Both the position numbers and the translations under genes were made by a program. DNA of 59,728 nt from a virus (lineage: Duplodnaviria > Caudoviricetes). The stretch covers positions 1 through 59,728 of the IMG/VR virus record IMGVR_UViG_3300042914_003096; one strand, given 5' to 3'. Positions 15,490 through 33,148 of the stretch are shown here, in pieces (within the stretch, counting starts at the first letter, position 1; every line of letters starts with the position of its first letter). The notes under the pieces are model-generated. The model was not told where the DNA came from and made no database searches. It was given only the letters and a program-made list of their open reading frames with translations.

Positions 15490-16410
15490 ATAGGCCGACC
15501 GAAAGGTTGACACACATAAAAAAAGTGAATTAACACCTCCCTTTCTTTAAGTGTTTAAATTATTAGGTCAATGGGCCGTGTATGGTCCATCCACTTCGGT
15601 GGCTTCTAACCTTCGGGTTAGTTGAAAATAAACTACGAAAGTAGGATAAAGTGAATCAGAAGTGTAACTGATTTGCGTCTTGGGAAACCGAGGTCGAGTA
15701 CACAAGCGGGATACCGTTTAATCTTTAGTACCGAGGGCGACGCTGTAGGGAAAGTGGTTAGATGATTGGGCGATGTGGGTCGTCTGATTGAGGTGGGAAC
15801 ACCAATAGGAATAACCCGTAGGAATTTTGCAAAAAATGTGGTTATCCAATCATATTATTGCGAGTTCCAATATTAAAGGAGACTTAAAACCGAAAGGTAT
15901 GTTGATGTACAGGTGGTGCTGTTATTAACCTTGACCGTTCCCCACCAAGGGATTGATCACGAAGTAGTCTTAAAATATGGAGATGGGGACATTTCAGAGA
16001 GTAGTTGAGTATCGACTCGTTCAAAAGATGGGTTGGCTCGTGGGCGGACCACTACTTTCACAATCCACGACACATAACTTATGGAAACTATTAATTCCCA
16101 AATTAAAAAGAGCATTAAGGAAAAGTGTCCGTCAGGTTTGAATGAAAGGTGACTACATAGTAATGAGCCGTTCATTGCACACAAAGATCCCAAGTCGATG
16201 TGTAATTATCCGAAAAACCTTTAGTCCCGCAAGGACGAACTGGGGAGGCATCCTCGGAAAGAGTCAAGTAAGGTGAGAGTAGTTCAAACCTCAAGGAGTG
16301 GTTCACCTAAATAACCGTCACTGAGAAATACTTCTCAAAAGGAAGTGGATAAGAGTAGAATAAATAATGACTCTAAAGGTTCTCAATAAAACGTGTAATC
16401 TCAGCGTTCT
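15490..16410 (+). ncRNA. Large structured non-coding RNA, ~900 nt (GOLLD-like candidate); ends approximate
   Basis: No credible ORF, raised GC, many tetraloop hairpins (CCAC-TTCG-GTGG, AACC-TTCG-GGTT, CTAC-GAAA-GTAG, ACC-GAAA-GGT, GTCC-CGCAA-GGAC); own promoter and terminator. Confidence 0.7.
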
Positions 16411-20661: not shown

Positions 20662-20988
20662 ATGAAAAAATTAATTAGACTTACAGAAACAGATTTACAT
20701 AGAATAGTTAAACGTGTAATTAGAGAATTTGAAGATCCTGATTTTTTAAAAGGTGCTGAAGAAAATTGGGAAAAAATTCACGGAAAAGATGAAGAATCAG
20801 AAAATACTGTTGATTTAGAACAAAGATTTGAAGATCTTATTGAAGATGCTTTTGATTTATTTGAACAAGAAGGTATCCCACACGAAGAATATATTATGTA
20901 CTCCGAAGAAGATGTAATTAATGCGGTTAGAGAAATTGATTCAGATCTTGCAGAAGAAATGAGTGAAATTTGGGACCAAATCGGATAA
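20662..20988 (+). CDS. LTESDL-leader family protein
   Basis: MKKLIRLTETDLHRIVKRVIRE. Confidence 0.7.
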   Translation: MKKLIRLTETDLHRIVKRVIREFEDPDFLKGAEENWEKIHGKDEESENTVDLEQRFEDLIEDAFDLFEQEGIPHEEYIMYSEEDVINAVREIDSDLAEEMSEIWDQIG

Positions 20989-22736: not shown

Positions 22737-23027
22737 ATGAAAAAAGTAATAAGATTAACGGAATCTGATTTAACAAGAATTGTTAAACGAATTATAAAGG
22801 AAAGTGAAGATGATATGGGTCCTTTATCAGAATTTACTAATGAAGAATTGGAAGAAATTAAATATAAGGTAATTAGATATTTACAACCAGGTTTTTTTGA
22901 TGAATGGGAAGCGGAAAATTATTTATTGTATAATGTTTCGGGTGGTAATAAACATCTTTATAATTCATTGGTTGAGTGGTTAGAACAAAATGGTGTAGAA
23001 TCATATCATCTTAAAAAAATAAAATAA
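22737..23027 (+). CDS. LTESDL-leader family protein
   Basis: MKKVIRLTESDLTRIVKRIIKE. Confidence 0.7.
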   Translation: MKKVIRLTESDLTRIVKRIIKESEDDMGPLSEFTNEELEEIKYKVIRYLQPGFFDEWEAENYLLYNVSGGNKHLYNSLVEWLEQNGVESYHLKKIK

Positions 23028-23030
23028 CAC

Positions 23031-23100
23031 TTGTCAAATAAAAAAAAATACTTATATTTGTAGAAGAAAATTGAACTTTTAGTAAAAACGATATATTTAT
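23031..23100 (+). promoter_or_regulatory. Tandem promoters (host-type plus ATATTTAT type) for tRNA array 1
   Basis: TTG at 23031 with TATATTTG at 23053-23060; ATATTTAT at 23093-23100. Confidence 0.7.
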
Positions 23101-23106
23101 AACGAA

Positions 23107-23217
23107 ATGAAAACACAAATGAAACATATGAACTTTAACACCCCGTGTCAGAATTGGGTCAAGTCGTATATTACGCTTAGTAATCTTCGGTGTCTTTCAT
23201 TTAATTGTGTGATGTAA
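23107..23217 (+). CDS. Putative attenuator leader peptide 1 (36 aa)
   Basis: MKTQMKHMNFNTPCQNWVKSYITLSNLRCLSFNCVM; run of G/C-ending codons unusual for this genome; 3' part is complementary to the terminator 5' arm. Confidence 0.7.
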   Translation: MKTQMKHMNFNTPCQNWVKSYITLSNLRCLSFNCVM

Positions 23218-23274
23218 CGTATCATCAAATATATATAACAAATGAAAGACCCGAACCAAAAGTTCGGGTTTTTT
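23186..23274 (+). promoter_or_regulatory. Antiterminator/terminator switch 1
   Basis: TTCGG(T)GTCTTTCATTT (23186-23202) pairs with AAATGAAAGACCCGAA (23240-23255); mutually exclusive terminator ACCCGAAC-caaaa-GTTCGGGT plus T run (23249-23274). Confidence 0.8.
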
Positions 23275-23284
23275 GTTTTACATT

Positions 23285-23356
23285 GGTCTCTTAGTTTAAC
23301 AGGAAAAATACGACTCTTGTAAAGTTGAGTTGTCGGGTCAGTTCCGACAGGGACCT
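23285..23356 (+). tRNA. tRNA-Thr(UGU), atypical T loop
   Basis: Acceptor GGTCTCT/AGGGACC; CGACT-CTTGTAA-AGTTG. Confidence 0.7.
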
Positions 23357-23368
23357 CAAAAAGAAAAA

Positions 23369-23385
23369 GTTCTTTGACATATTGG
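23369..23385 (+). promoter_or_regulatory. boxA-like antitermination element
   Basis: GTTCTTTGACATATTGG, identical copy at 27981; resembles rrn boxA. Confidence 0.55.
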
Positions 23386-23393
23386 CTTCATTA

Positions 23394-23477
23394 GGAGAGA
23401 TAATCACAGCGGCCTGTGATCCCGTCTTGAAAACGGTGAGTACCGAAAGGTATGGGGATCGACACCTCATCTCTCCT
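23394..23477 (+). tRNA. tRNA-Ser(UGA)
   Basis: GGAGAGA/TCTCTCC; CCGT-CTTGAAA-ACGG; long variable arm TACC-GAAA-GGTA. Confidence 0.8.
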
Positions 23478-23485
23478 CTGTAAAT

Positions 23486-23573
23486 TGCGGGGTAGACGAA
23501 TTAGGCAAAGTCACCAGGTTTTGACCCTGGAGGTAAATTACCATTGGAGGTTCGAGTCCTGTCTACCCTACAA
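23486..23573 (+). tRNA. tRNA-Gln(UUG), atypical (extra variable arm, irregular acceptor/T junction)
   Basis: CCAGG-TTTTGAC-CCTGG; GGTTCGAGTCC. Confidence 0.6.
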
Positions 23574-23575
23574 AA

Positions 23576-23649
23576 GTCTCCGTAGCTTAATCGGGAAAGC
23601 ACCATACTTTTAATATGGGGAGAGTCGGATCGTAACCGGCCGGGGGACA
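23576..23649 (+). tRNA. tRNA-Lys(UUU)
   Basis: CCATA-CTTTTAA-TATGG; D arm GCTTAATCGGGAAAGC; T arm GTCGG-ATCGTAA-CCGGC. Confidence 0.75.
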
Positions 23650-23716
23650 AAAAAAATTAGTAAAAAAGAACGCAATATACCAAAAAATGGTTACTTTTGT
23701 TCTGAAAAACTAAAAA

Positions 23717-23787
23717 GCCCCAATGGCGTAATGGGAGCGTGGTAGTATTACAAACTATCGGTGGTGGTTCAAATCCATCTTGGGGTA
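23717..23787 (+). tRNA. tRNA-Val(UAC)
   Basis: GCCCCAA/TTGGGGT; GTAGT-ATTACAA-ACTAT; GGTTCAAATCC. Confidence 0.8.
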
Positions 23788-23797
23788 CAAAAAATAA

Positions 23798-23870
23798 GGG
23801 AGTATCGGCAGGGTCCTGATCGTGTCTGTAAAACATCGTCTTGGTGGTTCGATTCCATCTGCTCCCACCA
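23798..23870 (+). tRNA. tRNA-Tyr(GUA), atypical (odd D arm, short variable loop); encodes CCA
   Basis: GGGAGTA/TGCTCCC-A-CCA; TGT-CTGTAAA-ACA. Confidence 0.65.
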
Positions 23871-23877
23871 AAAAATA

Positions 23878-23950
23878 GCTCACGTAGCTTAATTGGGAAA
23901 GCACTTGACTGATATTCAAGAGATAATCGGATCGTAACCGGTCGTGAGCA
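23878..23950 (+). tRNA. tRNA-Ile(GAU)
   Basis: GCTCACG/CGTGAGC; CTTGA-CTGATAT-TCAAG. Confidence 0.8.
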
Positions 23951-23955
23951 CAAAA

Positions 23956-24041
23956 GGAAGGTAAACCTTGATGGTGATAGGGTCCGCCTGCTAAGCGAGA
24001 TGTACCCGTAAGGGTATTTGGTTCGATTCCAATGTCTTCCT
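23956..24041 (+). tRNA. tRNA-Ser(GCU)
   Basis: GGAAGGT/GTCTTCC; CGC-CTGCTAA-GCG; variable arm TACCC-GTAA-GGGTA. Confidence 0.75.
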
Positions 24042-24045
24042 CAAC

Positions 24046-24114
24046 TCCCGTGTGATCAGGGATCAAAGTTGGCTCATATCCGACTTTAGAGTGGTTCGAT
24101 ACCACTACACGGGA
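24046..24114 (+). tRNA. tRNA with CAU anticodon (Met or Ile2), shortened D arm
   Basis: TCCCGTGT/ACACGGGA; GTTGG-CTCATAT-CCGAC; AGTGG-TTCGATA-CCACT. Confidence 0.6.
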
Positions 24115-24120
24115 CAACAT

Positions 24121-24194
24121 GGTGTATGTAGCTCAGTTGGGAGAGTGTCGGTTTGTGGATCCGAAGGTCGTGGGATCGTGACCCACCATACACA
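24121..24194 (+). tRNA. tRNA-His(GUG)
   Basis: G-1, GTGTATG/CATACAC; TCGG-tTTGTGGAt-CCGA. Confidence 0.8.
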
Positions 24195-24290
24195 CAAAAT
24201 AGTTCACAACGGACAAGGCTTAGGCGTATGAAACAGGACGGTGGGATGCGAGTGGTTGACCAGAACTATTTTTTTGATTATTGTTGTTTT

Positions 24291-24803
24291 ATGAAATTGT
24301 TTATTCCCTTAATTTTACTTTTTTTTGTTAGAGGGCTTTCACAACCATATACAAACACAATTGATGATTTTAAATTGTTCATTCAAAAACAAAAAAATAT
24401 CAAATTAGAAAAGGGACCATATAAGATTCCTGAAGATACTAATCAATACTTTTTTGTTGGAAAAATGATTGATGGGTCCTATTACTTTTTTTATAAACAT
24501 AAAATATCATCGTTTAAGTTAAATGACACTTATGAATATAAAAGTGATGATGAGTTTAATAAAAAACTACAGGAGTTAAAGATCACAGAGCAAAAAGATT
24601 CTGTTATTATTGTAAAAAAAGAAAATGAAAAAGTTTATCGGGATCAGACAATTATAATTTATGATACTGAAAACAAAAAAACAATTAAACAAAAAAGTAT
24701 TAAAGTTCCGTATGCTGAAAGAATTGATAACAAGTGGGTATATTTAAATCCAGCAAGGATCATATGGTTAGATCAAAACGGAAATGAAATAAAAAGAAAA
24801 TAA
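24291..24803 (+). CDS. Secreted hypothetical protein
   Basis: Likely start MKLFIPLILLFFVRGLSQ; the upstream extension in the ORF track overlaps tRNA-His. Confidence 0.6.
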   Translation: MKLFIPLILLFFVRGLSQPYTNTIDDFKLFIQKQKNIKLEKGPYKIPEDTNQYFFVGKMIDGSYYFFYKHKISSFKLNDTYEYKSDDEFNKKLQELKITEQKDSVIIVKKENEKVYRDQTIIIYDTENKKTIKQKSIKVPYAERIDNKWVYLNPARIIWLDQNGNEIKRK

Positions 24804-24840
24804 TATCCGATGTCGGTCCCGAGCTAGGTCGGGCACTACT

Positions 24841-24912
24841 GCAAGACTAGTGTAATGGCTAACACGGATGATTCCAAACCATCAAATTTCTGCTCGACTC
24901 GGAAGTTTTGCG
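24841..24912 (+). tRNA. tRNA-Trp(CCA)
   Basis: GCAAGAC/GTTTTGC-G; GATG-aTTCCAAAc-CATC; atypical T loop CTCGACT. Confidence 0.7.
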
Positions 24913-24958
24913 CAAATTTTAATTTTGCCAATTAAAAAACTTTTTGTATATTTGTGAT

Positions 24959-25459
24959 ATGAAAAAACAATTACCATACGAGTCAACAGGAAATGCAATT
25001 AAAGGTTATACAGAATCCTCAATCGCGAAAGGAGAATCAGGGGATTGTGTTGTAAGAGCATTTGCTTCTTCATTTGATGTTTCATATGATTTTGCACATA
25101 AGTTCGTTGCGGAAGAATTTAAAAGACAACCAAGAAGAGGAACGTATTTCACGGCATCCAAAATGGTTTCACTTTCTGAAGGACTAATTAAAGTTAATGG
25201 TAAAAAGATCTTTCCTGTTGGTACTCCGTCTAAAAGTGTTTTATCTCCTTTTTCTTTGTCTTACAAAGTTAAAGTAAAAGGTGTTGAAAAAGAAAGACAA
25301 ATGACTGTTGGTACTTTTGCAAAGAAAAACCCTAAAGGAACTTTCTTTGTGTTAGTTAAAGGTCACGCTTTCACAATCAAAGATGGTGTTGTGGTAGGAA
25401 ACCCAGAAGACGCAATCAAACTTAAAAGACCTATGAGGGCGGCATTTGAAATTAAATAA
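24959..25459 (+). CDS. Conserved phage protein, possible papain-like Cys/His fold
   Basis: GDCVVRAF...GHAFTIKDG; TATATTTG promoter immediately upstream. Confidence 0.5.
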   Translation: MKKQLPYESTGNAIKGYTESSIAKGESGDCVVRAFASSFDVSYDFAHKFVAEEFKRQPRRGTYFTASKMVSLSEGLIKVNGKKIFPVGTPSKSVLSPFSLSYKVKVKGVEKERQMTVGTFAKKNPKGTFFVLVKGHAFTIKDGVVVGNPEDAIKLKRPMRAAFEIK

Positions 25460-25514
25460 AAAACTATGGTGAACAACTCTCTATGGTTCCACAAACAAAT
25501 AAAAAATAGAAATT

Positions 25515-25970
25515 ATGAACAGGGTTTTTAGAAAGGTTACCGGAGAATCTGTTCCTGATATTGTAAAACACACATTAGACATTGTAAATGACTGCCCCTG
25601 GATTGAAGTACATATTGGAACTGACTCACAAAACCATAGAAGAAGTACCATTTATGTTACGGCAATTGCTTATAGATTTGGGAACCGTGGCGTTCATTAC
25701 ATCTATCACAAACAAAAGGTAAAAAAGATCCGAGATAAATGGACACGTTTATGGAATGAAGCTGATTATTCAATTGAAGTTGCAGAGTGGTTGACCCAAA
25801 AGGTAAATGTAAAGGTGGAAATAGATTTAGATTACAACAGCGACGAAAAACACTTCAGCTCAAAATTGGTCCAACCTGCTGTTGGGTGGGCAACATCTTT
25901 GGGTTATAAAGCAAATGTTAAACCACATAACCAAATTGCAACAAGGGCGGCAGACCACCACTGCCGCTAA
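25515..25970 (+). CDS. RNase H-like YkuK (DUF458) family protein
   Basis: HIGTDSQ, EADYS, IDLDYN and AADH acidic motifs. Confidence 0.8.
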   Translation: MNRVFRKVTGESVPDIVKHTLDIVNDCPWIEVHIGTDSQNHRRSTIYVTAIAYRFGNRGVHYIYHKQKVKKIRDKWTRLWNEADYSIEVAEWLTQKVNVKVEIDLDYNSDEKHFSSKLVQPAVGWATSLGYKANVKPHNQIATRAADHHCR

Positions 25971-25975
25971 TTTAT

Positions 25976-26048
25976 GAGAGGTTGTCCGAGCGGCGTTAGG
26001 TCTATGGTTGCAACCCATAGTACGGGGGTTCGAGTCCCTCACCTCTCT
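25976..26048 (+). tRNA. tRNA-Cys(GCA)
   Basis: GAGAGGT/ACCTCTC-T (U73); TATGG-TTGCAAC-CCATA. Confidence 0.85.
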
Positions 26049-26056
26049 CAACATAT

Positions 26057-26130
26057 GCCCCTATGGTGGAATAGGTATACACGTCAGATTTAGGATCTGA
26101 ATTTTGCAGGTTCGAGTCCTGCTAGGGGTA
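26057..26130 (+). tRNA. tRNA-Leu(UAG) lacking the long variable arm
   Basis: GCCCCTA/TAGGGGT-A; TCAGA-TTTAGGA-TCTGA; 5-nt variable loop. Confidence 0.8.
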
Positions 26131-26241
26131 CTAAACTTTTTTTAATATCGATATATTTATAATAAAAATATTGATATGAAAAAAATTATAAGATTAACAG
26201 AATCAGATTTAACAAGGATTGTTAAACGTGTGATTAAAGAA
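26109..26241 (+). repeat. Direct repeat copy 1 (tRNA-Leu 3' end, promoter and 22 leader codons)
   Basis: 133 nt, near-identical to 26787-26919. Confidence 0.85.
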
Positions 26242-26739
26242 CAATCAACACCAACACCTAAACTTGAGGATTATGAAAAAACATTTTTAATAAAGTTATT
26301 AACTGACATAAAAAATATATTATCGGATATTTTTAAAAGAACCTACGATGAAAATTTAGATGAAGGAGACAGAGTACAAGTATTAACTATGTCAATTTTT
26401 GATGACTACATAAAAAAAGTGAGTGACTTGAATTACAAAATTAGACCGTCACAATTAAAATGGTCTGATTTATATGGTAGACTTAGCTCAAGTGATAGGT
26501 TAACTATATTGGAACCTAATAGGGCTAAAAGAATTTGGACATTTATCGCCCCTTACCTCATTTCAAATTCCGATGTTAGTGACAATAATATTTTTATAGA
26601 TTTATTTAAGGGTGAACTAAAAAATAATCTAAAAGAGTTTCTTAGTCGTCTAAAGTCTTATAATAAATATATTATACAGACAATCAGTTTACCAAAAAAA
26701 CCTTTACAACAAATACCAACAAATGACGAAACCCCCTGA
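26176..26739 (+). CDS. LTESDL-leader family protein
   Basis: MKKIIRLTESDLTRIVKRVIKE. Confidence 0.75.
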   Translation: MKKIIRLTESDLTRIVKRVIKEQSTPTPKLEDYEKTFLIKLLTDIKNILSDIFKRTYDENLDEGDRVQVLTMSIFDDYIKKVSDLNYKIRPSQLKWSDLYGRLSSSDRLTILEPNRAKRIWTFIAPYLISNSDVSDNNIFIDLFKGELKNNLKEFLSRLKSYNKYIIQTISLPKKPLQQIPTNDETP

Positions 26740-26786
26740 ACTAACAATTAAAAAATCACAAAAAAACTTATTAAAGAATCTTTGAT

Positions 26787-26919
26787 GGTTCAAATCCTGC
26801 TAGGGGTACTAAACTTTTTTTAATATCGATATATTTATAATAAAAATATTGATATGAAAAAAGTAATTAGATTAACAGAATCTGATTTAACAAGAATTGT
26901 TAAACGTGTAATTAAAGAA
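26787..26919 (+). repeat. Direct repeat copy 2
   Basis: GGTTCAAATCCTGCTAGGGGTACTAAAC...ATTAAAGAA. Confidence 0.85.
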
Positions 26920-27126
26920 ACTCATCCATTAGAAGGTGGTCCTGGTTATATGACTAAACACCATATTGGTGTTCTTAAACGACTTATATCTGATTTAGAA
27001 AATGAAGATACAAGTAATCTATCGGATGAAAATTTAAGAGGATATTTTAAAACACTTAATCATCTTAAGAATGCACTTAAAGGGGCAAATGTTAAATATA
27101 AAGAAGAAACAGGTGAAGATATATAA
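26854..27126 (+). CDS. LTESDL-leader family protein
   Basis: MKKVIRLTESDLTRIVKRVIKE. Confidence 0.75.
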   Translation: MKKVIRLTESDLTRIVKRVIKETHPLEGGPGYMTKHHIGVLKRLISDLENEDTSNLSDENLRGYFKTLNHLKNALKGANVKYKEETGEDI

Positions 27127-27142
27127 AAGGTTTTAAATAAAA

Positions 27143-27469
27143 ATGAAAAAAGTTATTAGACTTACCGAATCTGATCTTGTAAGAATCGTTAAACGTGTAA
27201 TTAAAGAATCTAAATTCCGATCTCAATTCGGTGATATGGGTTATTGGATTGACGAAAAAGGTAATTGGGTGGAATTTGATAAGGATCTGGAAAAAACCGG
27301 ATATTATGATTTTGAATATGAACCATTCACCGATGTTGAAGATTATGAAGAATTACCTGACGATCTAAAAGAAAAACTATTTCCTGATAGTAAAATTGGT
27401 AGGGAATTTTTTAACAAGTACAAAGAAAAACATGGTAAGTTTCAGTACTCAAGAAAAAAAGATATATAG
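27143..27469 (+). CDS. LTESDL-leader family protein
   Basis: MKKVIRLTESDLVRIVKRVIKE. Confidence 0.75.
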   Translation: MKKVIRLTESDLVRIVKRVIKESKFRSQFGDMGYWIDEKGNWVEFDKDLEKTGYYDFEYEPFTDVEDYEELPDDLKEKLFPDSKIGREFFNKYKEKHGKFQYSRKKDI

Positions 27470-27470
27470 T

Positions 27471-27794
27471 ATGAAAAAAGTAATTAGATTAACAGAAAGA
27501 GATTTAACTCGTATTGTTAAACGAGTGTTTAAAGAAAATGAAGAGGATATGATTCGTATCCCAAGAGAATATAAAGGTATCAGAGCGGAAGTTGGATCAA
27601 AGGCGTCACCTCAAGACATTATTGATATGTATAACGAAGTGGTTGCTTCTGAAGGAGACACACCTTTTTTAGTTGAATATTCAGAATACGGAACTGAAGG
27701 TATGTTTTATAATGAAGAAGGTGATGAAATTCCTGTTGATGCTATTCTTGATGAATTAAACTATGGATTAGTTGGAGAAGAAGAAGATTTTTAA
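27471..27794 (+). CDS. LTESDL-leader family protein
   Basis: Start corrected to ATG 27471: MKKVIRLTERDLTRIVKRVFKE. Confidence 0.75.
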   Translation: MKKVIRLTERDLTRIVKRVFKENEEDMIRIPREYKGIRAEVGSKASPQDIIDMYNEVVASEGDTPFLVEYSEYGTEGMFYNEEGDEIPVDAILDELNYGLVGEEEDF

Positions 27795-27853
27795 AAAAAC
27801 TTGACACTTTTGAAAAGTTGTATATATTTATAACAAAAATAATAAAAACGCAA

Positions 27854-27928
27854 ATGAAAAATTTACATATTATATCTTTAAGAGGGTTGGCGGGTGCTGA
27901 GGATACTTTCTGTATGGAGATGGTATGA
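27854..27928 (+). CDS. Putative attenuator leader peptide 2 (24 aa)
   Basis: MKNLHIISLRGLAGAEDTFCMEMV; last codons complementary to the terminator 5' arm; ATATATTTATAAC upstream as for leader 1. Confidence 0.7.
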   Translation: MKNLHIISLRGLAGAEDTFCMEMV

Positions 27929-27980
27929 TAATTTAACATATAAATTTTTCAAACCCATCTCCAAAAGAGGTGGGTTTTTT
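27915..27980 (+). promoter_or_regulatory. Antiterminator/terminator switch 2
   Basis: TGGAGATGG (27915-27923) pairs with CCATCTCCA (27955-27963); alternative terminator AAACCCATCTC-caaaa-GAGGTGGGTTT plus T run. Confidence 0.75.
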
Positions 27981-27997
27981 GTTCTTTGACATATTGG
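27981..27997 (+). promoter_or_regulatory. boxA-like antitermination element
   Basis: GTTCTTTGACATATTGG, identical to 23369; variant GTTCATTGACATATT at ~29092. Confidence 0.55.
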
Positions 27998-28028
27998 TAA
28001 ATTAAAAATTAATTAGTAACTTTGTTTT

Positions 28029-28196
28029 ATGAAAGCAAAAGATAAAAATATCGTACATAATTTGATCATCGGATCCCAGAGACAAAAACAAGTTGATCAG
28101 GGATTCTTTGATGGTAGATTTGTTTCAAGAGTTTATGATTCAAATAAGAATTATACTCGAAAAGAAAAACATAAGAAAAATTATTTGGTATATTAA
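28029..28196 (+). CDS. 55-aa ArfA-like ribosome rescue factor candidate (not in ORF track)
   Basis: DGRFVSRVYDSNKNYTRKEKHKK versus E. coli ArfA [24 protein letters not shown]. Confidence 0.5.
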   Translation: MKAKDKNIVHNLIIGSQRQKQVDQGFFDGRFVSRVYDSNKNYTRKEKHKKNYLVY

Positions 28197-28311
28197 AATA
28201 ATTTTATATCTTTGTTATACACATAAACCTAAGTACCCATACCGCTGACGGTGGGCTAAGTAAGATACAATTTCGTACCGCGGGAAGTAGAATGCTTAGG
28301 AGTGTGTTTAT

Positions 28312-28411
28312 AGTCAGGTGGCGGAATTGGTAACAGTTTATGGGCTATTAAGAATGCTGGTAACGGTAGATAGAGAGATTCTTAATGCAGGTTCAAGTCC
28401 TGTCCTGGCTG
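28312..28411 (+). ncRNA. Leu-type tRNA-like RNA with the anticodon arm replaced
   Basis: AGTCAGG/CCTGGCT, TGGCGGAATTGGTA, T arm GCAGG-TTCAAGT-CCTGT; middle is an ATTAAGAAT/ATTCTTAAT stem with no canonical 7-nt anticodon loop. Confidence 0.6.
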
Positions 28412-28670
28412 CACGTTGAGGGTTCATCACCCCATAGTGTGCCCCACACGATGAGAAACGAAGTGATGTTTCGTAGGGGAACGTACTTTGTCGTATAGGG
28501 AGAACGACTAAGAAAGTAAGTTGTACTAAGTACAGTGGAAACACACACCTCAACAGAGATGGACTGAAAGTTCGCTTGACTGGGAAAGACGAAATGAACT
28601 ATTCCTAACCCACCTTTATGGTGGGGACAACCATAACACCTGTAAGCTGGATAAATGAGGGTGTTACTTT

Positions 28671-28784
28671 AGTCAGGTGGCGGAATTGGTAGACGCAAAG
28701 ATGTTGTGAGTTGGTAGGTAATAACTACTTGGATAGTATCCACACTAGAACTCTCAAATACAGGTTCAAATCCTGTCCTGACTA
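28671..28784 (+). ncRNA. Leu-type tRNA-like RNA with the anticodon arm replaced by a branched domain
   Basis: AGTCAGG/CCTGACT-A, D arm GGCGGAATTGGTAGACGC, T arm ACAGG-TTCAAAT-CCTGT; insert GAGTT...AACTC encloses two hairpins. Confidence 0.65.
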
Positions 28785-28813
28785 CAAAAAAAAATAATTT
28801 TATATAAATTAAT

Positions 28814-28990
28814 ATGGGAAAGGAAATATTTGAAGAATTGGAAAATGAAGTTAACCAAGTATTAGGTTACCTTCCAATTGATAGAGATTTGGTAAAGGAT
28901 TTGATTGATAAAGCAAAAGAAAAGATGAATCAAAAATTTGAGGAACTAAAGGATTTTGATACTTGGAAGGAATGGAAAAATAAAAAGTAA
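28814..28990 (+). CDS. 58-aa hypothetical protein (not in ORF track)
   Basis: MGKEIFEELENEVNQVLGY...LKDFDTWKEWKNKK. Confidence 0.55.
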   Translation: MGKEIFEELENEVNQVLGYLPIDRDLVKDLIDKAKEKMNQKFEELKDFDTWKEWKNKK

Positions 28991-29311
28991 AAAAAGATTT
29001 GGTAGATTAAAATATTCTACTTATATTTGTAAGACAAACAACGGGGGTAGGAAGTTTAGAGATGAGTGTCCTACTCCCGTAAAAAGAAGAAGTTCATTGA
29101 CATATTAAATAAAGGGATAAGGTAACCACGAACCCACTGGTAATAGGCCTTTCTTGAGATGGAATGCAAGATAGAATGTAACTCCTGCCTTATCCCCTTT
29201 TTAAAAATATTGTGGTTGTAAGAAAAGGGAAACTCGTTAAGTACATTAACCTGTTAACGCAAAATGGTGAAACGAGAGTGTGTGTTAACTACTGAACTAC
29301 ATTATTAAAAT

Positions 29312-29366
29312 AGTTAGGTGGAGGGTTATAGGTGCTCCCACACAGGTTCAAGTCCTGTCCTAACTA
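29312..29366 (+). ncRNA. Minimal tRNA-like RNA (acceptor stem, one hairpin, T arm)
   Basis: AGTTAGG/CCTAACT-A; GGAG...CTCC; ACAGG-TTCAAGT-CCTGT. Confidence 0.55.
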
Positions 29367-29371
29367 CACAT

Positions 29372-29442
29372 TGCGGTTTAGTGTAATTGGTAGCACACGG
29401 GGCTCATAACCCTGAGGCCAGGTTCGAGTCCTGAATCCGCTA
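29372..29442 (+). tRNA. Initiator tRNA-fMet(CAU)
   Basis: CGGGG-CTCATAA-CCCTG with three G-C pairs; 1:72 mismatch. Confidence 0.75.
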
Positions 29443-29586
29443 CAACACGGATGAATAGGTGGAAGGGCCTTTCCTGAAAGATGGCTAGCTAGGCCCGTGT
29501 TCATCCTGAGCCAACCAAGCTTTACCACGATACGGGTTCATACCTGTGGGTTGGGGGTGACGATCAGGAAAGACTGATAAATTTAT

Positions 29587-29666
29587 GCTGACGTACCGGT
29601 GGATGCTTATATCATCTATGCCCGTAGAGGAAGTTTAAAACGTTGGTTCGATCCCAACCGTCAGTA
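29587..29666 (+). tRNA. D-armless tRNA-like RNA with UAU (Ile) anticodon and long variable region
   Basis: GCTGACG/CGTCAGT-A; 7-nt linker in place of the D arm; GGATG-CTTATAT-CATCT; GTTGG-TTCGATC-CCAAC. Confidence 0.55.
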
Positions 29667-29761
29667 CAAAAAGATCAACTAGTCACTGTATCCAACCAGT
29701 GGGTGTCAGTAAGTATTCTGAGCGACGTTTAAATCCTGATAGCAATGTTGATTTTTATTTT

Positions 29762-29833
29762 GCGGGTATCGTATAATGGTTATTACTCCACACTTCCAAT
29801 GTGGAGATGAGTGTTCGATTCATTCTACCCGCA
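29762..29833 (+). tRNA. tRNA-Gly(UCC)
   Basis: GCGGGTA/TACCCGC; CCACA-CTTCCAA-TGTGG. Confidence 0.85.
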
Positions 29834-29952
29834 CAAAAACGCTTTAAAGGATTGTGTACAGATCCAGAGTGGGGAGCGGGTCCCACATTTAATTTGATTT
29901 TAAAATAAAATATTGGTATATTTTTTTAAACTAAAAAAACAAATATGAAACA

Positions 29953-30165
29953 ATGAAAATTAAATTAGGATTGTGGTGGTTGGTAGGCACCACAATTATT
30001 TACATCTACATTATGAATCTATTTTTCAATTACGTGATTAATAGGGAAGTTGATGAAATCCTACAAATCGGTGCAAGTTTTATAGCTTTAATTTACACTG
30101 CATTTCAAATAAAGCAAATAGTAAAAGAAGTAATAAATTTATTTAAAAAAGAAGAAAAAGAATGA
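29953..30165 (+). CDS. Small two-TM membrane protein
   Basis: Two hydrophobic segments; coupled to the SPFH gene. Confidence 0.6.
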   Translation: MKIKLGLWWLVGTTIIYIYIMNLFFNYVINREVDEILQIGASFIALIYTAFQIKQIVKEVINLFKKEEKE

Positions 30166-31064
30166 TTAGTGTAATTGTAACTGTAGTATTTTTGATCGTA
30201 GCAGGTGTTATGATCTTTAAATCAAGAATTGATGATGATAACGCGGCACTTGCAAAAGGGATTGTCGTTGGTGTTGTTGGTTTGGTAGTTGGTTTGATCC
30301 AACCTTATTCCCTTGAAAGAATTGATGCTGGACATAAAGGTATTGTTGTTAACCTTTCAGGATCTGAAAGAGGTGTATCTTCATACCAATACAAAACAGG
30401 TTGGGTTGTTTATAACACTTGGTTCACACAAGTTTTGGAGTTCCCAACTTATCAACAACATATTGAATATGATGATCAAATGGTAATAACAAAAGGAGGA
30501 TTTTCTGCAACAATTAAACCAAGTTTTAACTATTCATTAAAACCTGAAGCTATTGGTGATATGTTTGAAAATTTAAGATTGGGAGTTAAAGAAATTGAAC
30601 AAGGTTGGCTTAAAAATGCGATCATCGGGGCTGTTAATGACGTATCAAACACTTGGGAAGTGGATAGCATTTTTGGTCACAGACAGGCGTTTGAATCAAG
30701 TATCGTTGTTGAATGTAATAAAAGACTTGAAAAATGGTTTAACGTTTCACAACTTAGAACAAATATCACACCACCTGAAGCGTTACAAGAGGCAATTATT
30801 GCAAAAACCAAATCTATCCAACAAGCCGAAGCATCCGAACAACAAGCACTTGCGGCAATTGCGGATGGTAAAAGAAAGATCGCAGTTGCAAGAGCTGACT
30901 CGGCTGAAACTATCATTAATGCGAAGGCCGCCGCACTTGCAATGAAACTAAAACAACAAGAATTAACACCACTATATGTTGATTATGTTAAGGCTAACGC
31001 TTGGGATGGTAAACTTCCATCAACAATGACAAGTGGATCTGGAACATTTTTGAACATTAAGTAA
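30162..31064 (+). CDS. SPFH/Band 7/prohibitin family membrane protein
   Basis: N-terminal TM segments, RIDAGHKGIVV, Ala/Glu-rich coiled coil, C-terminal WDGKLP. Confidence 0.85.
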   Translation: MISVIVTVVFLIVAGVMIFKSRIDDDNAALAKGIVVGVVGLVVGLIQPYSLERIDAGHKGIVVNLSGSERGVSSYQYKTGWVVYNTWFTQVLEFPTYQQHIEYDDQMVITKGGFSATIKPSFNYSLKPEAIGDMFENLRLGVKEIEQGWLKNAIIGAVNDVSNTWEVDSIFGHRQAFESSIVVECNKRLEKWFNVSQLRTNITPPEALQEAIIAKTKSIQQAEASEQQALAAIADGKRKIAVARADSAETIINAKAAALAMKLKQQELTPLYVDYVKANAWDGKLPSTMTSGSGTFLNIK

Positions 31065-31176
31065 AAAAAGATTTGGTAGTTTGAAATAAACTACCTATCT
31101 TTGTAAGACAAACAAGATGAGTTTCCCAACACTAAATTGGGACAAGTGGTACACAAGTCCACGACTCATCTTAAAT

Positions 31177-31251
31177 GGTCCGTTCGTCTAGCTGGTTTAG
31201 GACACTTCCCTTTCACGGAAGAGATCACGGGTTCAAATCCCGTACGGACTT
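31177..31251 (+). tRNA. tRNA-Glu(UUC)
   Basis: GGTCCGT/ACGGACT; CTTCC-CTTTCAC-GGAAG; GGTTCAAATCC. Confidence 0.9.
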
Positions 31252-31311
31252 CAATTGGACGAACAACATTGCACACAAGTTGTACCTCTACGGTTTTAAA
31301 GTGTGTTTATT

Positions 31312-31382
31312 GGTCCATTGGTGTAATAGTAACATTTGTCCCTGTCACGGACAAGCCCTCGGAGCGTAACCGGGATGGACCG
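31312..31382 (+). tRNA. tRNA-Asp(GUC)
   Basis: GGTCCAT/ATGGACC-G; TGTCC-CTGTCAC-GGACA; atypical T loop AGCGTAA. Confidence 0.8.
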
Positions 31383-31539
31383 CAATAATTAACTATGATG
31401 CAAGTACTTTTAATATTTTTTATTGGTTATCTTTTTCTTATTAGAAAAAGAACTGATCGTAGATATTAATTAATAATAGGTCCAGTTTCAGGTTGGAAAA
31501 GAGGTAGAAAGTTAAAATAAACAAATAAAAATTTTAGTT

Positions 31540-31722
31540 ATGAAAATGTTGATAACAATGAAAACCTTTATTACCAATATTTTCAAACACAAATGTGAAA
31601 ATGAAAGTAGGGTAATTGGAATTTATGGTGGCGAAAAAGTGAATGGAAAAGTCACCGACGTTACAATCAAATACAGATGTAGAGTATGTAACAACGTTTA
31701 TGAAGTGTGCCAAGTGTTATAA
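31540..31722 (+). CDS. Small Cys-rich hypothetical protein
   Basis: HKC...CRVC pattern. Confidence 0.45.
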   Translation: MKMLITMKTFITNIFKHKCENESRVIGIYGGEKVNGKVTDVTIKYRCRVCNNVYEVCQVL

Positions 31723-31734
31723 TCATAAACGGTA

Positions 31735-31804
31735 GGTCATTGAGCGTGTTGGAGAACGCACCCAGGTCATGGGAGAATAACAGGTTCGATTCCTGTAATG
31801 ACTT
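31735..31804 (+). ncRNA. tRNA-like RNA with a shrunken anticodon arm (4-bp stem, 5-nt loop)
   Basis: GGTCATT/AATGACT; D stem GCGT/ACGC; CCCA-GGTCA-TGGG; ACAGG-TTCGATT-CCTGT. Confidence 0.55.
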
Positions 31805-31813
31805 CAAAAATTT

Positions 31814-32084
31814 GCACCCGTAGCTCAGCTGGAATAGAGCAACTGCCTCAAATAGGGGGTGTTATATCAGAAATGGTATAATAGAATTCATCAAATTCGG
31901 GGAAGCCTTTAAAATGGTAATCCCGAGCCAAGCCCGAAAGGGAAGGTGTAGAGACTTGACGGTGAACACCTAAGTTGTAAAAAATAAGGTGATGAGAAAG
32001 TCCAGACCACAAACAGAAATGGCAGTGAAAACTGTAGTGGGAAGTCTAAGCAGTAGGTCCTTGGTTCGAATCCAAGCGGGTGTA
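31814..32084 (+). tRNA. tRNA-Arg(UCU) interrupted by a group I intron (exons 31814-31848 and 32045-32084)
   Basis: Joined exons give ACTGC-CT|TCTAA-GCAGT; acceptor GCACCCG/CGGGTGT. Confidence 0.85.
31849..32044 (+). ncRNA. Compact self-splicing group I intron (IC3-like), 196 nt, no ORF
   Basis: U.G pair in P1 (GCCUC/GGGGU), AAATTCGGGGAA, AATCCCGAGC, GTAGAGACT, AAAGTCC, terminal G. Confidence 0.85.
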
Positions 32085-32265
32085 CAAACAGGTAGGTGGA
32101 TTGTGTTACACACCCCACTGACGAGTGGGACGGTCCTAATAATAAGTTACGAAACGATATATCATTGAGCGATTCGGATCGGGTAACAAATATGGGCTAA
32201 GGGGGTTAGATTCCCCCACCTTGTCGATATTGACAAATATAAATTATTATACTACTATTACTTAA

Positions 32266-32338
32266 AGTCGGGTAGCTCAGTTGGTAGAGCAATCTCAAAA
32301 AAAGAGACGTGTCATTGGTTCAATCCCTTTCCCGACTT
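32266..32338 (+). pseudogene. Phe-like tRNA with an all-A anticodon loop (pseudo-tRNA or decoy)
   Basis: AGTCGGG/CCCGACT; TAGCTCAGTTGGTAGAGC; TCTC-AAAAAAA-GAGA; weak T stem. Confidence 0.5.
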
Positions 32339-32419
32339 TTTTATATTTTTTTTCATTTACCATTTGGCAGATTAAAAATTTTGCCTATCTTTGTAATGTA
32401 ATCATAAAACAAAGACACT

Positions 32420-33148
32420 ATGGACATCACAACAAAAGTTAGAAACTACAACGGTAAAAATTCTTTCATCTTGAAAATGAAAGATGCAGTTCAAAAATAC
32501 GGATCGCTAACCGCAAAACAGGCGGCGGCGACTGAAAAGATCCTTAATGCTGTTGTTGAGGCTAAATCTGTTGAAATGTCTGACGATATGAAAAAAATCG
32601 CAGCGTACGAGGGTAAAAACTCTTTTGTTTTGGAATTGAAGGGTAAACTTGAAAAGTACGGGAGCCTTACAGACAAACAAGTGTCGGCAGCACTTTCCCA
32701 AATCCAAAAAGAAGAAGACAAGGCCGCTACAGTTCATATGAACATCCCGGCTGTTGGTGATACAATCAAGATCGGTCGTAAGATAGGTCAGACACTTAAA
32801 GAAACTTACGGGTTGAAATTTAACCCAATCCTTTTGGATGTTACTAAGGTTCTTGCAATTTCACCTAAAGCTGTTAAATTCGCAGCAAAACTTACAATCA
32901 AAAGAGGATCCGTTTGTACTTGTTGTATGAAAACTTTAACAGACGAATTTTCAATGTTGACAGGACTTGGTAAGATTTGTGCTTCACACGTAGGAGTTCC
33001 TTACATCACTGACAAGTCACAAGCAGAATCGTTCCGTATCGAATATATGAAACGAGTTGATGAAATCGGTGAAATGGAACTATGGGTTCCTAAATCCCAA
33101 ATCAAAACTTGGGAAGGTACGGCAGACATCTTGTTGAAGATGGTATAA
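32420..33148 (+). CDS. Protein with two internal KYGSLTxKQ repeats and a DUF6011-like zinc finger
   Basis: NSF...KYGSLT.KQ twice; CTCCMKTLTD...GLGKICA; host-type promoter upstream. Confidence 0.6.
   Translation: MDITTKVRNYNGKNSFILKMKDAVQKYGSLTAKQAAATEKILNAVVEAKSVEMSDDMKKIAAYEGKNSFVLELKGKLEKYGSLTDKQVSAALSQIQKEEDKAATVHMNIPAVGDTIKIGRKIGQTLKETYGLKFNPILLDVTKVLAISPKAVKFAAKLTIKRGSVCTCCMKTLTDEFSMLTGLGKICASHVGVPYITDKSQAESFRIEYMKRVDEIGEMELWVPKSQIKTWEGTADILLKMV

Follow-up and report, generated by a model that had tools for sequence, protein, structure and literature searches.

Among the attenuators of bacterial amino-acid operons, multivalent leaders sample several amino acids. T-box riboswitches, which are found in Firmicutes, attenuate transcription according to the state of a specific tRNA and control genes of the translation apparatus. 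In phage lambda, the nut site (boxA and boxB), together with the N protein, makes the polymerase resistant to termination. For the tRNA genes carried by phages, the matching of codon usage, the replacement of degraded host tRNAs, and the escape from anticodon nucleases have been proposed as reasons. Here we analyzed a window of 59,728 bases, which is the whole stretch of DNA under study and corresponds to a complete IMG/VR virus record (IMGVR_UViG_3300042914_003096), estimated to represent ~21% of a genome. The source is a lake phage. The element in question lies at 27801–27997 of the window (all features given here are on the plus strand) and consists of a promoter, a short leader open reading frame (ORF), a terminator, and a boxA sequence. 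It is likely a ribosome-mediated leader-peptide attenuator which stands at the head of a phage tRNA block, is joined to a boxA of the host ribosomal RNA operon (rrn) type, and senses decoding by the tRNAs of this block.

The predicted promoter (27801–27830) is composed of TTGACA at 27801–27806, followed by TATATTTA at 27823–27830, and is the best sigma-70-like match (11/12) in the 20–36 kb part of the window. The sigma-70 scan as a whole was at chance level (70 sites found, 72.2 expected); therefore, only this single 11/12 site was used, together with the promoter-like motif TTG-N19-TAnnTTTG, which occurs at 22 plus-strand sites in the window compared to 2.7 in shuffled sequences. Its consensus, TTG-N19-TAnnTTT[GA], is what we take to be the Bacteroidota promoter type. 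The leader ORF (27854–27928) is located close behind this promoter, starting 24 nt past the −7 box. It opens with the ATG at 27854, contains 24 sense codons, ends with the TGA at 27926–27928, and would encode the peptide MKNLHIISLRGLAGAEDTFCMEMV. A first-pass annotation, made from the letters of the window without database searches, had described a 24-codon leader containing the codons ATA to TTC, the 3′ strand of which was said to be exactly complementary to the terminator. Both descriptions were confirmed. The quoted codons are in frame as codons 7–19, and the antiterminator strand TGGAGATGG (27915–27923), which lies within codons 21–24, is the exact 9-bp reverse complement of CCATCTCCA at 27955–27963.

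The predicted intrinsic terminator (27952–27980) is located between the ORF and the downstream genes, and its stem starts 23 nt past the leader stop codon. The hairpin AACCCATCTC/caaaa/GAGGTGGGTT, with the arms at 27952–27961 and 27967–27976 and the CAAAA loop at 27962–27966, has a folding energy of −14.7 kcal/mol when taken alone. Together with the run of six T residues at 27975–27980, the hairpin at 27952–27976 was the top-ranked terminator-like site in the 20–36 kb part of the window. It is followed by the boxA 17-mer GTTCTTTGACATATTGG (27981–27997), of which an exact second copy is present at 23369–23385.

The 151-nt unit folded with a z-score of −3.44, and none of 200 shuffles was as stable. 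When the nascent RNA was cut before the 3′ arm of the terminator, the minimum free energy (MFE) structure formed the 9-bp antiterminator helix. The full RNA favored the terminator (−36.2 kcal/mol, compared to −28.9 kcal/mol with the antiterminator forced). A perfect complement of at least 9 nt to the arm region was obtained in 117 of 20,000 mononucleotide shuffles of the 92 nt upstream. The MFE structure of this copy also paired 27866–27879 with the switch strand, in the manner of the 1:2 helix of trp attenuators. This 7-bp helix was 97.9% pairable in the family, with zero double-sided changes. Across 22 leader families, such a helix remained at chance level (own −8.62 kcal/mol versus other −8.45 kcal/mol, p = 0.34). 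Because the 1:2 helix has no cross-family support, a two-helix switch is proposed, which would allow read-through when the leader is not translated.

Related units were collected by a scan anchored on GGGTTTTT, a gap of 0–30, and the 17-mer, which yielded 82 matches in 80 loci; 61 of these loci had distinct upstream sequence. These 61 relatives, which come from uncultured phages, and the two copies of the window together gave 63 units. The stem was mis-called by the hairpin finder in two of them (L151 and L174), both of which were scored as misses. An ATG-initiated ORF of at least 22 codons, ending 20–38 nt before the stem, was found in 61 of the 63 units, compared to 4.2% of the shuffles (527/12,600). 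The two units counted as lacking this ORF (L183 and L191) have a GTG start codon instead of ATG. The gap between the ORF and the stem had a median of 25 nt and was 22–27 nt in 43 of 61 units. In 47 of 61 units, the 90 nt preceding the leader ATG contained the promoter motif TTG-N18-21-TAnnTTT[GA], compared to 0.8% of the shuffles. The leader peptides fell into ~22 families at 50% identity. Within families, the length of the ORF was kept (24 codons in 10 of the 11 distinct ORFs of family A, and 37 codons in all 13 ORFs of family B). The codons themselves changed freely, with 98 synonymous and 361 nonsynonymous differences in family A, and 212 and 431, respectively, in family B. Frame and length are thus kept while the peptide is not, which indicates a regulatory reading frame rather than a functional small protein.

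The pairing between the leader and the terminator was investigated by a duplex test, where the 92 nt upstream of each unit were matched with its own terminator 5′ arm and with the arms of the other units. The mean duplex energy was −14.4 kcal/mol with the own arm and −8.5 kcal/mol with other arms. The own arm was unbeaten by any dissimilar arm in 43 of 58 distinct units, and no more than 6% of the arms were as good in 49 of 58. The misses were L123, L124, L136, L141, L143, L172, the window copy (12%), and the two units with a mis-called stem. In most units, 0–20 nt separated the end of the pairing strand from the last base of the stop codon, and the strand therefore lies within the last codons of the ORF. 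The stems differ widely among the families (CCCGGC, CCCATCT, CCCTGAACT, CCCGACTTAA, CCTCCTCA, and others), which argues for covariation and not for common ancestry of one sequence. In the own family of the 27854 leader (14 sequences), the antiterminator was 90.5% paired and showed two double-sided changes (a level reached by 7 of 500 shuffles; slid controls gave 39–60%), and the terminator was 98.6% paired, likewise with two such changes (reached by 2 of 500 shuffles). Columns 119 and 123 of the shared strand (alignment A1) co-vary with both partners, that is, with the ORF strand and with the terminator 3′ arm. The predicted alternative helix uses one terminator strand and one strand that a translating ribosome would reach. 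The 61 further units from other phages support the earlier proposal that this element is a leader-peptide attenuator with the same logic as the copy at 23.1–23.3 kb. The related proposal, that the structure is under selection rather than a recent duplicate, was borne out as well, because the presence and length of the ORF and its spacing to the stem are maintained despite changes in the peptide, and the ORF strand co-varies with the arm.

The genes behind the related units were called with ARAGORN on up to 3 kb downstream, and the units were found to stand ahead of tRNA arrays. Leaders and arrays were compared using one representative per leader family (n = 22) and 20,000 permutations of the array assignment. 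The leader contained a codon for 97.2% of the isotypes of its own array, compared to 76.4% of those of other arrays. Likewise, 60.8% of the leader residues had a cognate tRNA in the own downstream array versus 44.2% in other arrays, and 50.7% of the leader codons were readable by a downstream anticodon versus 36.3% (p ≤ 5e-5 for each of the three comparisons). Weakly matching leaders also count in these figures; L121, for example, reached 17%, with no more than three tRNAs within range. The codon match peaked 15–30 nt before the switch strand, where it was 76% for the own array and 42% for other arrays (20 representatives). Inside the switch strand (38% versus 36%) and after it (33% versus 35%), no excess for the own array was observed in these representatives. 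Given the footprint geometry of the ribosome, a ribosome stalled at this peak would not occlude the switch strand. In the 27854 leader, the corresponding position, 15–30 nt before the antiterminator strand, is occupied by codons 12–16 (27887–27901; TTG GCG GGT GCT GAG, i.e., Leu-Ala-Gly-Ala-Glu). We infer from the position-dependent match in the relatives that these are the candidate regulatory codons. They would be cognate to what the operon supplies, as in known attenuators, in the modified form that leader codons match the isotypes of downstream tRNAs.

Swaps of leaders and arrays within the same contig remove the effects of codon usage. The leader of the sister unit, which starts at 23107, contains 10 of the 10 isotypes of its own array and 3 of the 6 of the 27854 unit, whereas the 27854 leader contains 6 of its own 6 and 7 of the 10 of the 23107 unit. 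Similarly, the two leaders of L139 contain 9/9 and 6/6 of their own isotypes, compared to 3/6 and 4/9 after swapping. The six isotypes detected downstream of the 27854 leader, all of which it holds, are Met, Gly, Glu, Asp, Phe, and the intron-bearing Arg(tct). In family B, tRNA-Ala was present in three of the four arrays with Ala in the leader and in none of the 12 arrays without it. Across the 11 amino acids tabulated in this family, a leader without the residue was never followed by an array with the corresponding tRNA type.

At least 122 bacterial loci carried the boxA 17-mer, and the record titles assign almost all of them to Bacteroidota. Of 20 Bacteroidota loci that were searched with Rfam, 17 carried the 17-mer after spacer tRNAs and 61–198 nt before the 23S rRNA; in the remaining three, no rRNA or tRNA match was present within the stretch examined. 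Compared letter for letter, the 17-mer is the 16S–23S spacer boxA of Bacteroidota, and what had been annotated as boxA-like proved to be a genuine rrn-type boxA. At least 117 viral loci also carried it. In many of these loci, the boxA was located 8–15 nt before, or just after, tRNA genes, and in five family members tRNA-Leu(taa) directly followed it. On visual inspection, the viral 17-mers often flanked tRNA genes at a distance of a few bases or abutted the T run of a preceding hairpin. In none of the 122 bacterial loci was the 17-mer preceded within 60 nt by such a hairpin and T run; in this sample, the junction of terminator and boxA is thus an arrangement of phages. At the level of sequence, this shows that phages borrow the host rRNA boxA for their tRNA arrays. 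In the window, the boxA stands ahead of long untranslated RNA genes, which is a likeness of position.

In the mechanism proposed here, transcription would start a few bases past 27830, and ribosomes would translate the 24-codon ORF. A fast ribosome at the stop codon would cover 27915–27923 but not the stem, the terminator would fold, and an RNA of ~145 nt would end near 27980. A ribosome that covers the switch strand and spares the stem would also explain the nearly fixed spacing of 22–27 nt. If the ribosome were held at codons ~12–16, or were absent, 27915–27923 would pair with 27955–27963, the terminator would be blocked, and the polymerase would read on. By analogy with rrn operons, the boxA would load the host rrn antitermination (Nus) factors, with which the polymerase would cross the long untranslated tRNA region. 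Since the leader has at least one codon per downstream tRNA type, the switch would raise the tRNA output when decoding is slow and lower it when tRNAs are plentiful. The phage probably makes the tRNAs of the block when ribosomes read the matching codons slowly.

Different readings of the same unit were also considered. It could be the same attenuator, reporting the general capacity for translation (ribosome supply, initiation, or coupling to the polymerase), with the composition of the leader being incidental. The unsupported 1:2 helix fits this explanation because an untranslated leader would then read through by default and any loss of translation would induce. In addition, ~40% of the leader residues have no detected downstream tRNA, and the codon-box specificity is weak. 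However, a leader of incidental composition is at odds with the difference between the own and other arrays (97.2% versus 76.4% of the array isotypes), with the concentration of the match just before the antiterminator, with the two leaders on one contig that each fit their own block, and with the way in which leader Ala tracks array tRNA-Ala within family B; we regard this explanation as unlikely. The first-pass annotation had proposed starvation for Gly, Ala, Glu, or Asp as the signal, and an amino-acid starvation sensor, which would respond to uncharged tRNAs for these and other amino acids and tune phage expression to host nutrition, would indeed have the anatomy of the classical attenuators. 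A shortage of tRNA and a shortage of charging stall ribosomes at the same codons, and sequence therefore cannot tell the two apart. Such a sensor is nevertheless improbable, given that the switch is followed by a boxA and tRNA genes and not by biosynthetic or transport genes, that extra tRNA does not relieve amino-acid starvation, and that each leader mirrors the tRNAs present in its own array. As the element precedes tRNA genes rather than genes for amino-acid biosynthesis, slow decoding by the downstream tRNA types is a likelier signal than starvation for Gly, Ala, Glu, or Asp as such.

It is very improbable that there is no switch at all. In that case, the unit would be a stand-alone small gene or small RNA with a promoter and a terminator, or a chance frame in a folded RNA, and the 9-nt complementarity would be accidental. 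For this copy, such complementarity arises in ~0.6% of the shuffles, the comparison of its own arm with other arms is not significant (0.12), and the unit folds stably (z = −3.44). On the other hand, an accidental arrangement would hardly leave 61 of 63 units with an ORF at a fixed spacing to the stem (4.2% by chance), nor an ORF-internal strand whose covariation extends over a dozen or more unrelated stems. The peptide drifts freely while frame and length are kept, which is unlike a functional small protein, and the match between leaders and tRNAs has no place in this explanation.

Several observations weigh against the attenuator that senses decoding by the tRNAs of its own block. The relatives were gathered through the exact boxA, the G-rich arm, and the T run, and therefore form a selected sample. 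The arrays were cut at 3 kb, and ARAGORN misses odd tRNAs. The permutation tests overstate independence, as the leader families may be distantly related. Taken by itself, this copy has modest statistics. For the 27854 leader, random 23-residue pieces of the phage's own proteins hold all six isotypes 5.2% of the time, and its residues match its own array at 9 of 23 positions and the other array at 10 of 23. Neither tRNA-Ala nor a clean tRNA-Leu(taa), both of which would be expected from codons 12–15, was detected in the window; relatives have both. The choice of codon box at the isoacceptor level (Leu, Arg, Ser, and Ile) follows the arrays weakly (summed Fisher p = 0.043, with small counts), and no single one of these amino acids was significant. 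Moreover, 12% of the arms of other units are almost as good partners for the upstream region of this copy as its own arm (the own-versus-other value of 0.12). Finally, six promoter-like sites lie within 27981–32420 (between 27994 and 32393), compared to 0.14 in shuffles, so that read-through may be one contributor to the expression of these tRNAs rather than its sole driver.

The sister unit occupies 23092–23385 and consists of a −7 box (23092–23099), a 36-codon ORF (23107–23217), an antiterminator strand (23185–23197), a terminator (23248–23270) with a T run, a tRNA-Thr gene (23285–23357), and the boxA (23369–23385). Its hairpin is GACCCGAAC/caaaa/GTTCGGGTT, and the part termed attenuator 1 spans 23092–23276. 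The two units had been described as having stems that share no sequence, with the CAAAA loop, the layout, and the 17-mer recurring. The letters of the stems do differ, except that an ACCC..GGGT base is common to both. The CAAAA loop recurs in both units of the window but in only 12 of the 63 related units, the rest of which have other A-rich loops. The layout and the exact 17-mer recur as described, with the difference that in the sister unit the boxA follows the first tRNA gene and not directly the terminator. Two tRNA-like genes behind this unit (23393–23478 and 23955–24040) were missed by ARAGORN and matched the tRNA-Sec model with 40.6 and 37 bits, which is below the threshold of 47. Judged by eye, both combine an extended acceptor stem and a D stem of 6 bp with a long extra arm, and their anticodon loops read TGA and GCT; the combination of loops and arms points to serine tRNAs. 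The first of them directly follows the boxA at 23369.

The first gene after the boxA of the 27854 unit is a 55-codon ORF (28029–28196) with no Pfam family and a weak PHROG match (E 0.003). Just before it, and overlapping the end of the boxA, is the first of the six promoter-like sites, TTGG-N19-TAACTTTG (27994–28024). Promoter-like sites of a second class, with the extended consensus TTGG(T/C)A.ATT.AAA...TA..TTTG, were observed inside the tRNA block at 28185–28214, 28999–29029, 31073–31103, and 32364–32393. This class is distinct from the TTGACA...TATATTTATAAC class, which precedes both leaders and the paralogous small genes described below, and the two may represent different temporal classes. 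The tRNA block (29372–32339) comprises tRNA-Met (29372–29443), tRNA-Gly(tcc) (29762–29834), tRNA-Glu(ttc) (31177–31252), tRNA-Asp(gtc) (31312–31383), tRNA-Arg(tct) (31814–32085), and a tRNA-Phe with the unusual anticodon AAA (32265–32339; ARAGORN, and Rfam tRNA model with 38.1 bits). The tRNA-Arg(tct) gene was detected by ARAGORN when introns were allowed and contains a group I intron of 196 nt (Rfam Intron_gpI at 31839–32026, 80 bits). Odd tRNA-like genes are located at 28312–28411, 28671–28784, 29312–29366, and ~29586–29672, with Rfam tRNA scores of 26.5, 42.1, and 25.4 bits. By eye, these have acceptor, D, and T arms of the tRNA-Leu type, with large insertions or a missing arm, and one anticodon loop apparently reads TAT (Ile).

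The tRNA region as a whole spans 19.6–32.4 kb of the window and contains 15 tRNAs detected by ARAGORN. A full-length GOLLD RNA (15997–16407; Rfam RF02032, 333 bits) is located ~3 kb upstream of this region. Seven paralogous small genes, at 20662, 22175, 22737, 26176, 26854, 27143, and 27471, are interspersed with the tRNA genes. They form the repeat family D1 with the common start MKK(V/I)IRLTE(S)DL.RIVKRVIKE, and the two that were tested had no Pfam or PHROG family. The region also contains a gene for an RNase H-like protein (25515–25970; PF04308, 88.2 bits) and a gene for an SPFH/Band 7 protein (30162–31064; Pfam 63.9 bits, PHROG "lipoprotein"). Comparison of 27000–29000 of the window with GenBank phages gave zero matches, and a family-B unit matched cultured phages through its tRNA part only. 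The 35 nt around the boxA gave short matches to cultured phages (E ≥ 0.4), including Prevotella Lak and Cellulophaga phages, which were too weak to use. In a freshwater metatranscriptome run (X1), 0.07 of the sampled words were found, with short contigs on 22900–32500 and almost no cover at 27715–28035. These contigs, which derive from this phage or its relatives, cannot show RNA ends, and the library may hold DNA; therefore, nothing was drawn from this run. Some of its RNA contigs are forms that skip ~60 nt at 28697–28758.

Why phages carry tRNA genes, and when these are used, is an old open question, and a leader written in cognate codons and wired to a terminator makes it testable. Under the model, slower decoding would raise tRNA output in a codon-by-codon manner. 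A further-reaching version, which we offer tentatively, is that the leader spells the tRNA types of its block, that precisely this replacement set is turned on whenever one of them is lost, and that the host rrn boxA carries the polymerase through the array. If this were true, the unit would be a homeostat of tRNA supply with a possible counter-defence trigger; host shut-off, tRNA-cleaving defence nucleases, or the phage's own codon demand could be what triggers it. To our knowledge, sensing of this kind is a form of tRNA gene regulation that has not been described for any cell or virus. The compact parts (the promoter, a sensor of 24–37 codons, the switch, and the boxA) could also serve as sensors of tRNA supply in Bacteroidota.

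A full-text literature search, with subscription journals outside its coverage, returned no report on the attenuation of phage or cellular tRNA genes or on boxA in phage tRNA arrays. As far as this search reached, the unit would be the first case of tRNA genes under ribosome-mediated attenuation. At gathering thresholds, Rfam had no match at the leader unit. A search at E ≤ 1 returned leader models below threshold only (Phe, Thr, and Trp; Phe_leader RF01859, Thr_leader RF00506, and Trp_leader RF00513 were compared). Phe_leader matched 27843–27982 over the whole length of the model with 30.5 bits (cut-off 55), and the sister unit scored 27.4 bits against a cut-off of 55 and 25.5 bits against one of 41, which is also below threshold. 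The phage unit resembles the enterobacterial amino-acid operon attenuators (trp, his, leu, thr, and pheA) in its short ORF, its terminator, and a second, competing helix for which one of the terminator strands is used. It further resembles them in that the position of the ribosome would choose the helix and that the informative codons immediately precede the switch strand. Nearest among these attenuators are the multivalent ilvGMEDA and thr leaders. Unlike all of them, the phage unit precedes tRNA genes and not biosynthetic enzymes, and phage leaders sample up to ~16 amino-acid types once or twice each, without runs of a single codon. In contrast to the trp type, the 1:2 helix of the phage units has no cross-family support, and a boxA follows the terminator.

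The rrn boxA, a NusB/NusE site of the rrn leader and the 16S–23S spacer, is like the phage element in the 17-mer and in its position ahead of long, untranslated, structured RNA genes. However, the phage copy sits directly after the terminator of an attenuator and is repeated inside tRNA arrays. With the lambda nut site, the unit shares the use of boxA by a phage. In contrast to nut, neither an N-like protein nor a boxB partner was identified, and the hairpin before the boxA has a U run and would act as a terminator in competition with an ORF-internal strand. The Rfam search of the window returned no T-box match. The T-box is alike in that it attenuates transcription in response to the state of one particular tRNA. 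The T-box binds its tRNA by RNA–RNA contacts, has no ORF, and controls genes for aminoacyl-tRNA synthetases, biosynthesis, and transport, whereas in the phage unit the ribosome would be the reader and the tRNA genes the target.

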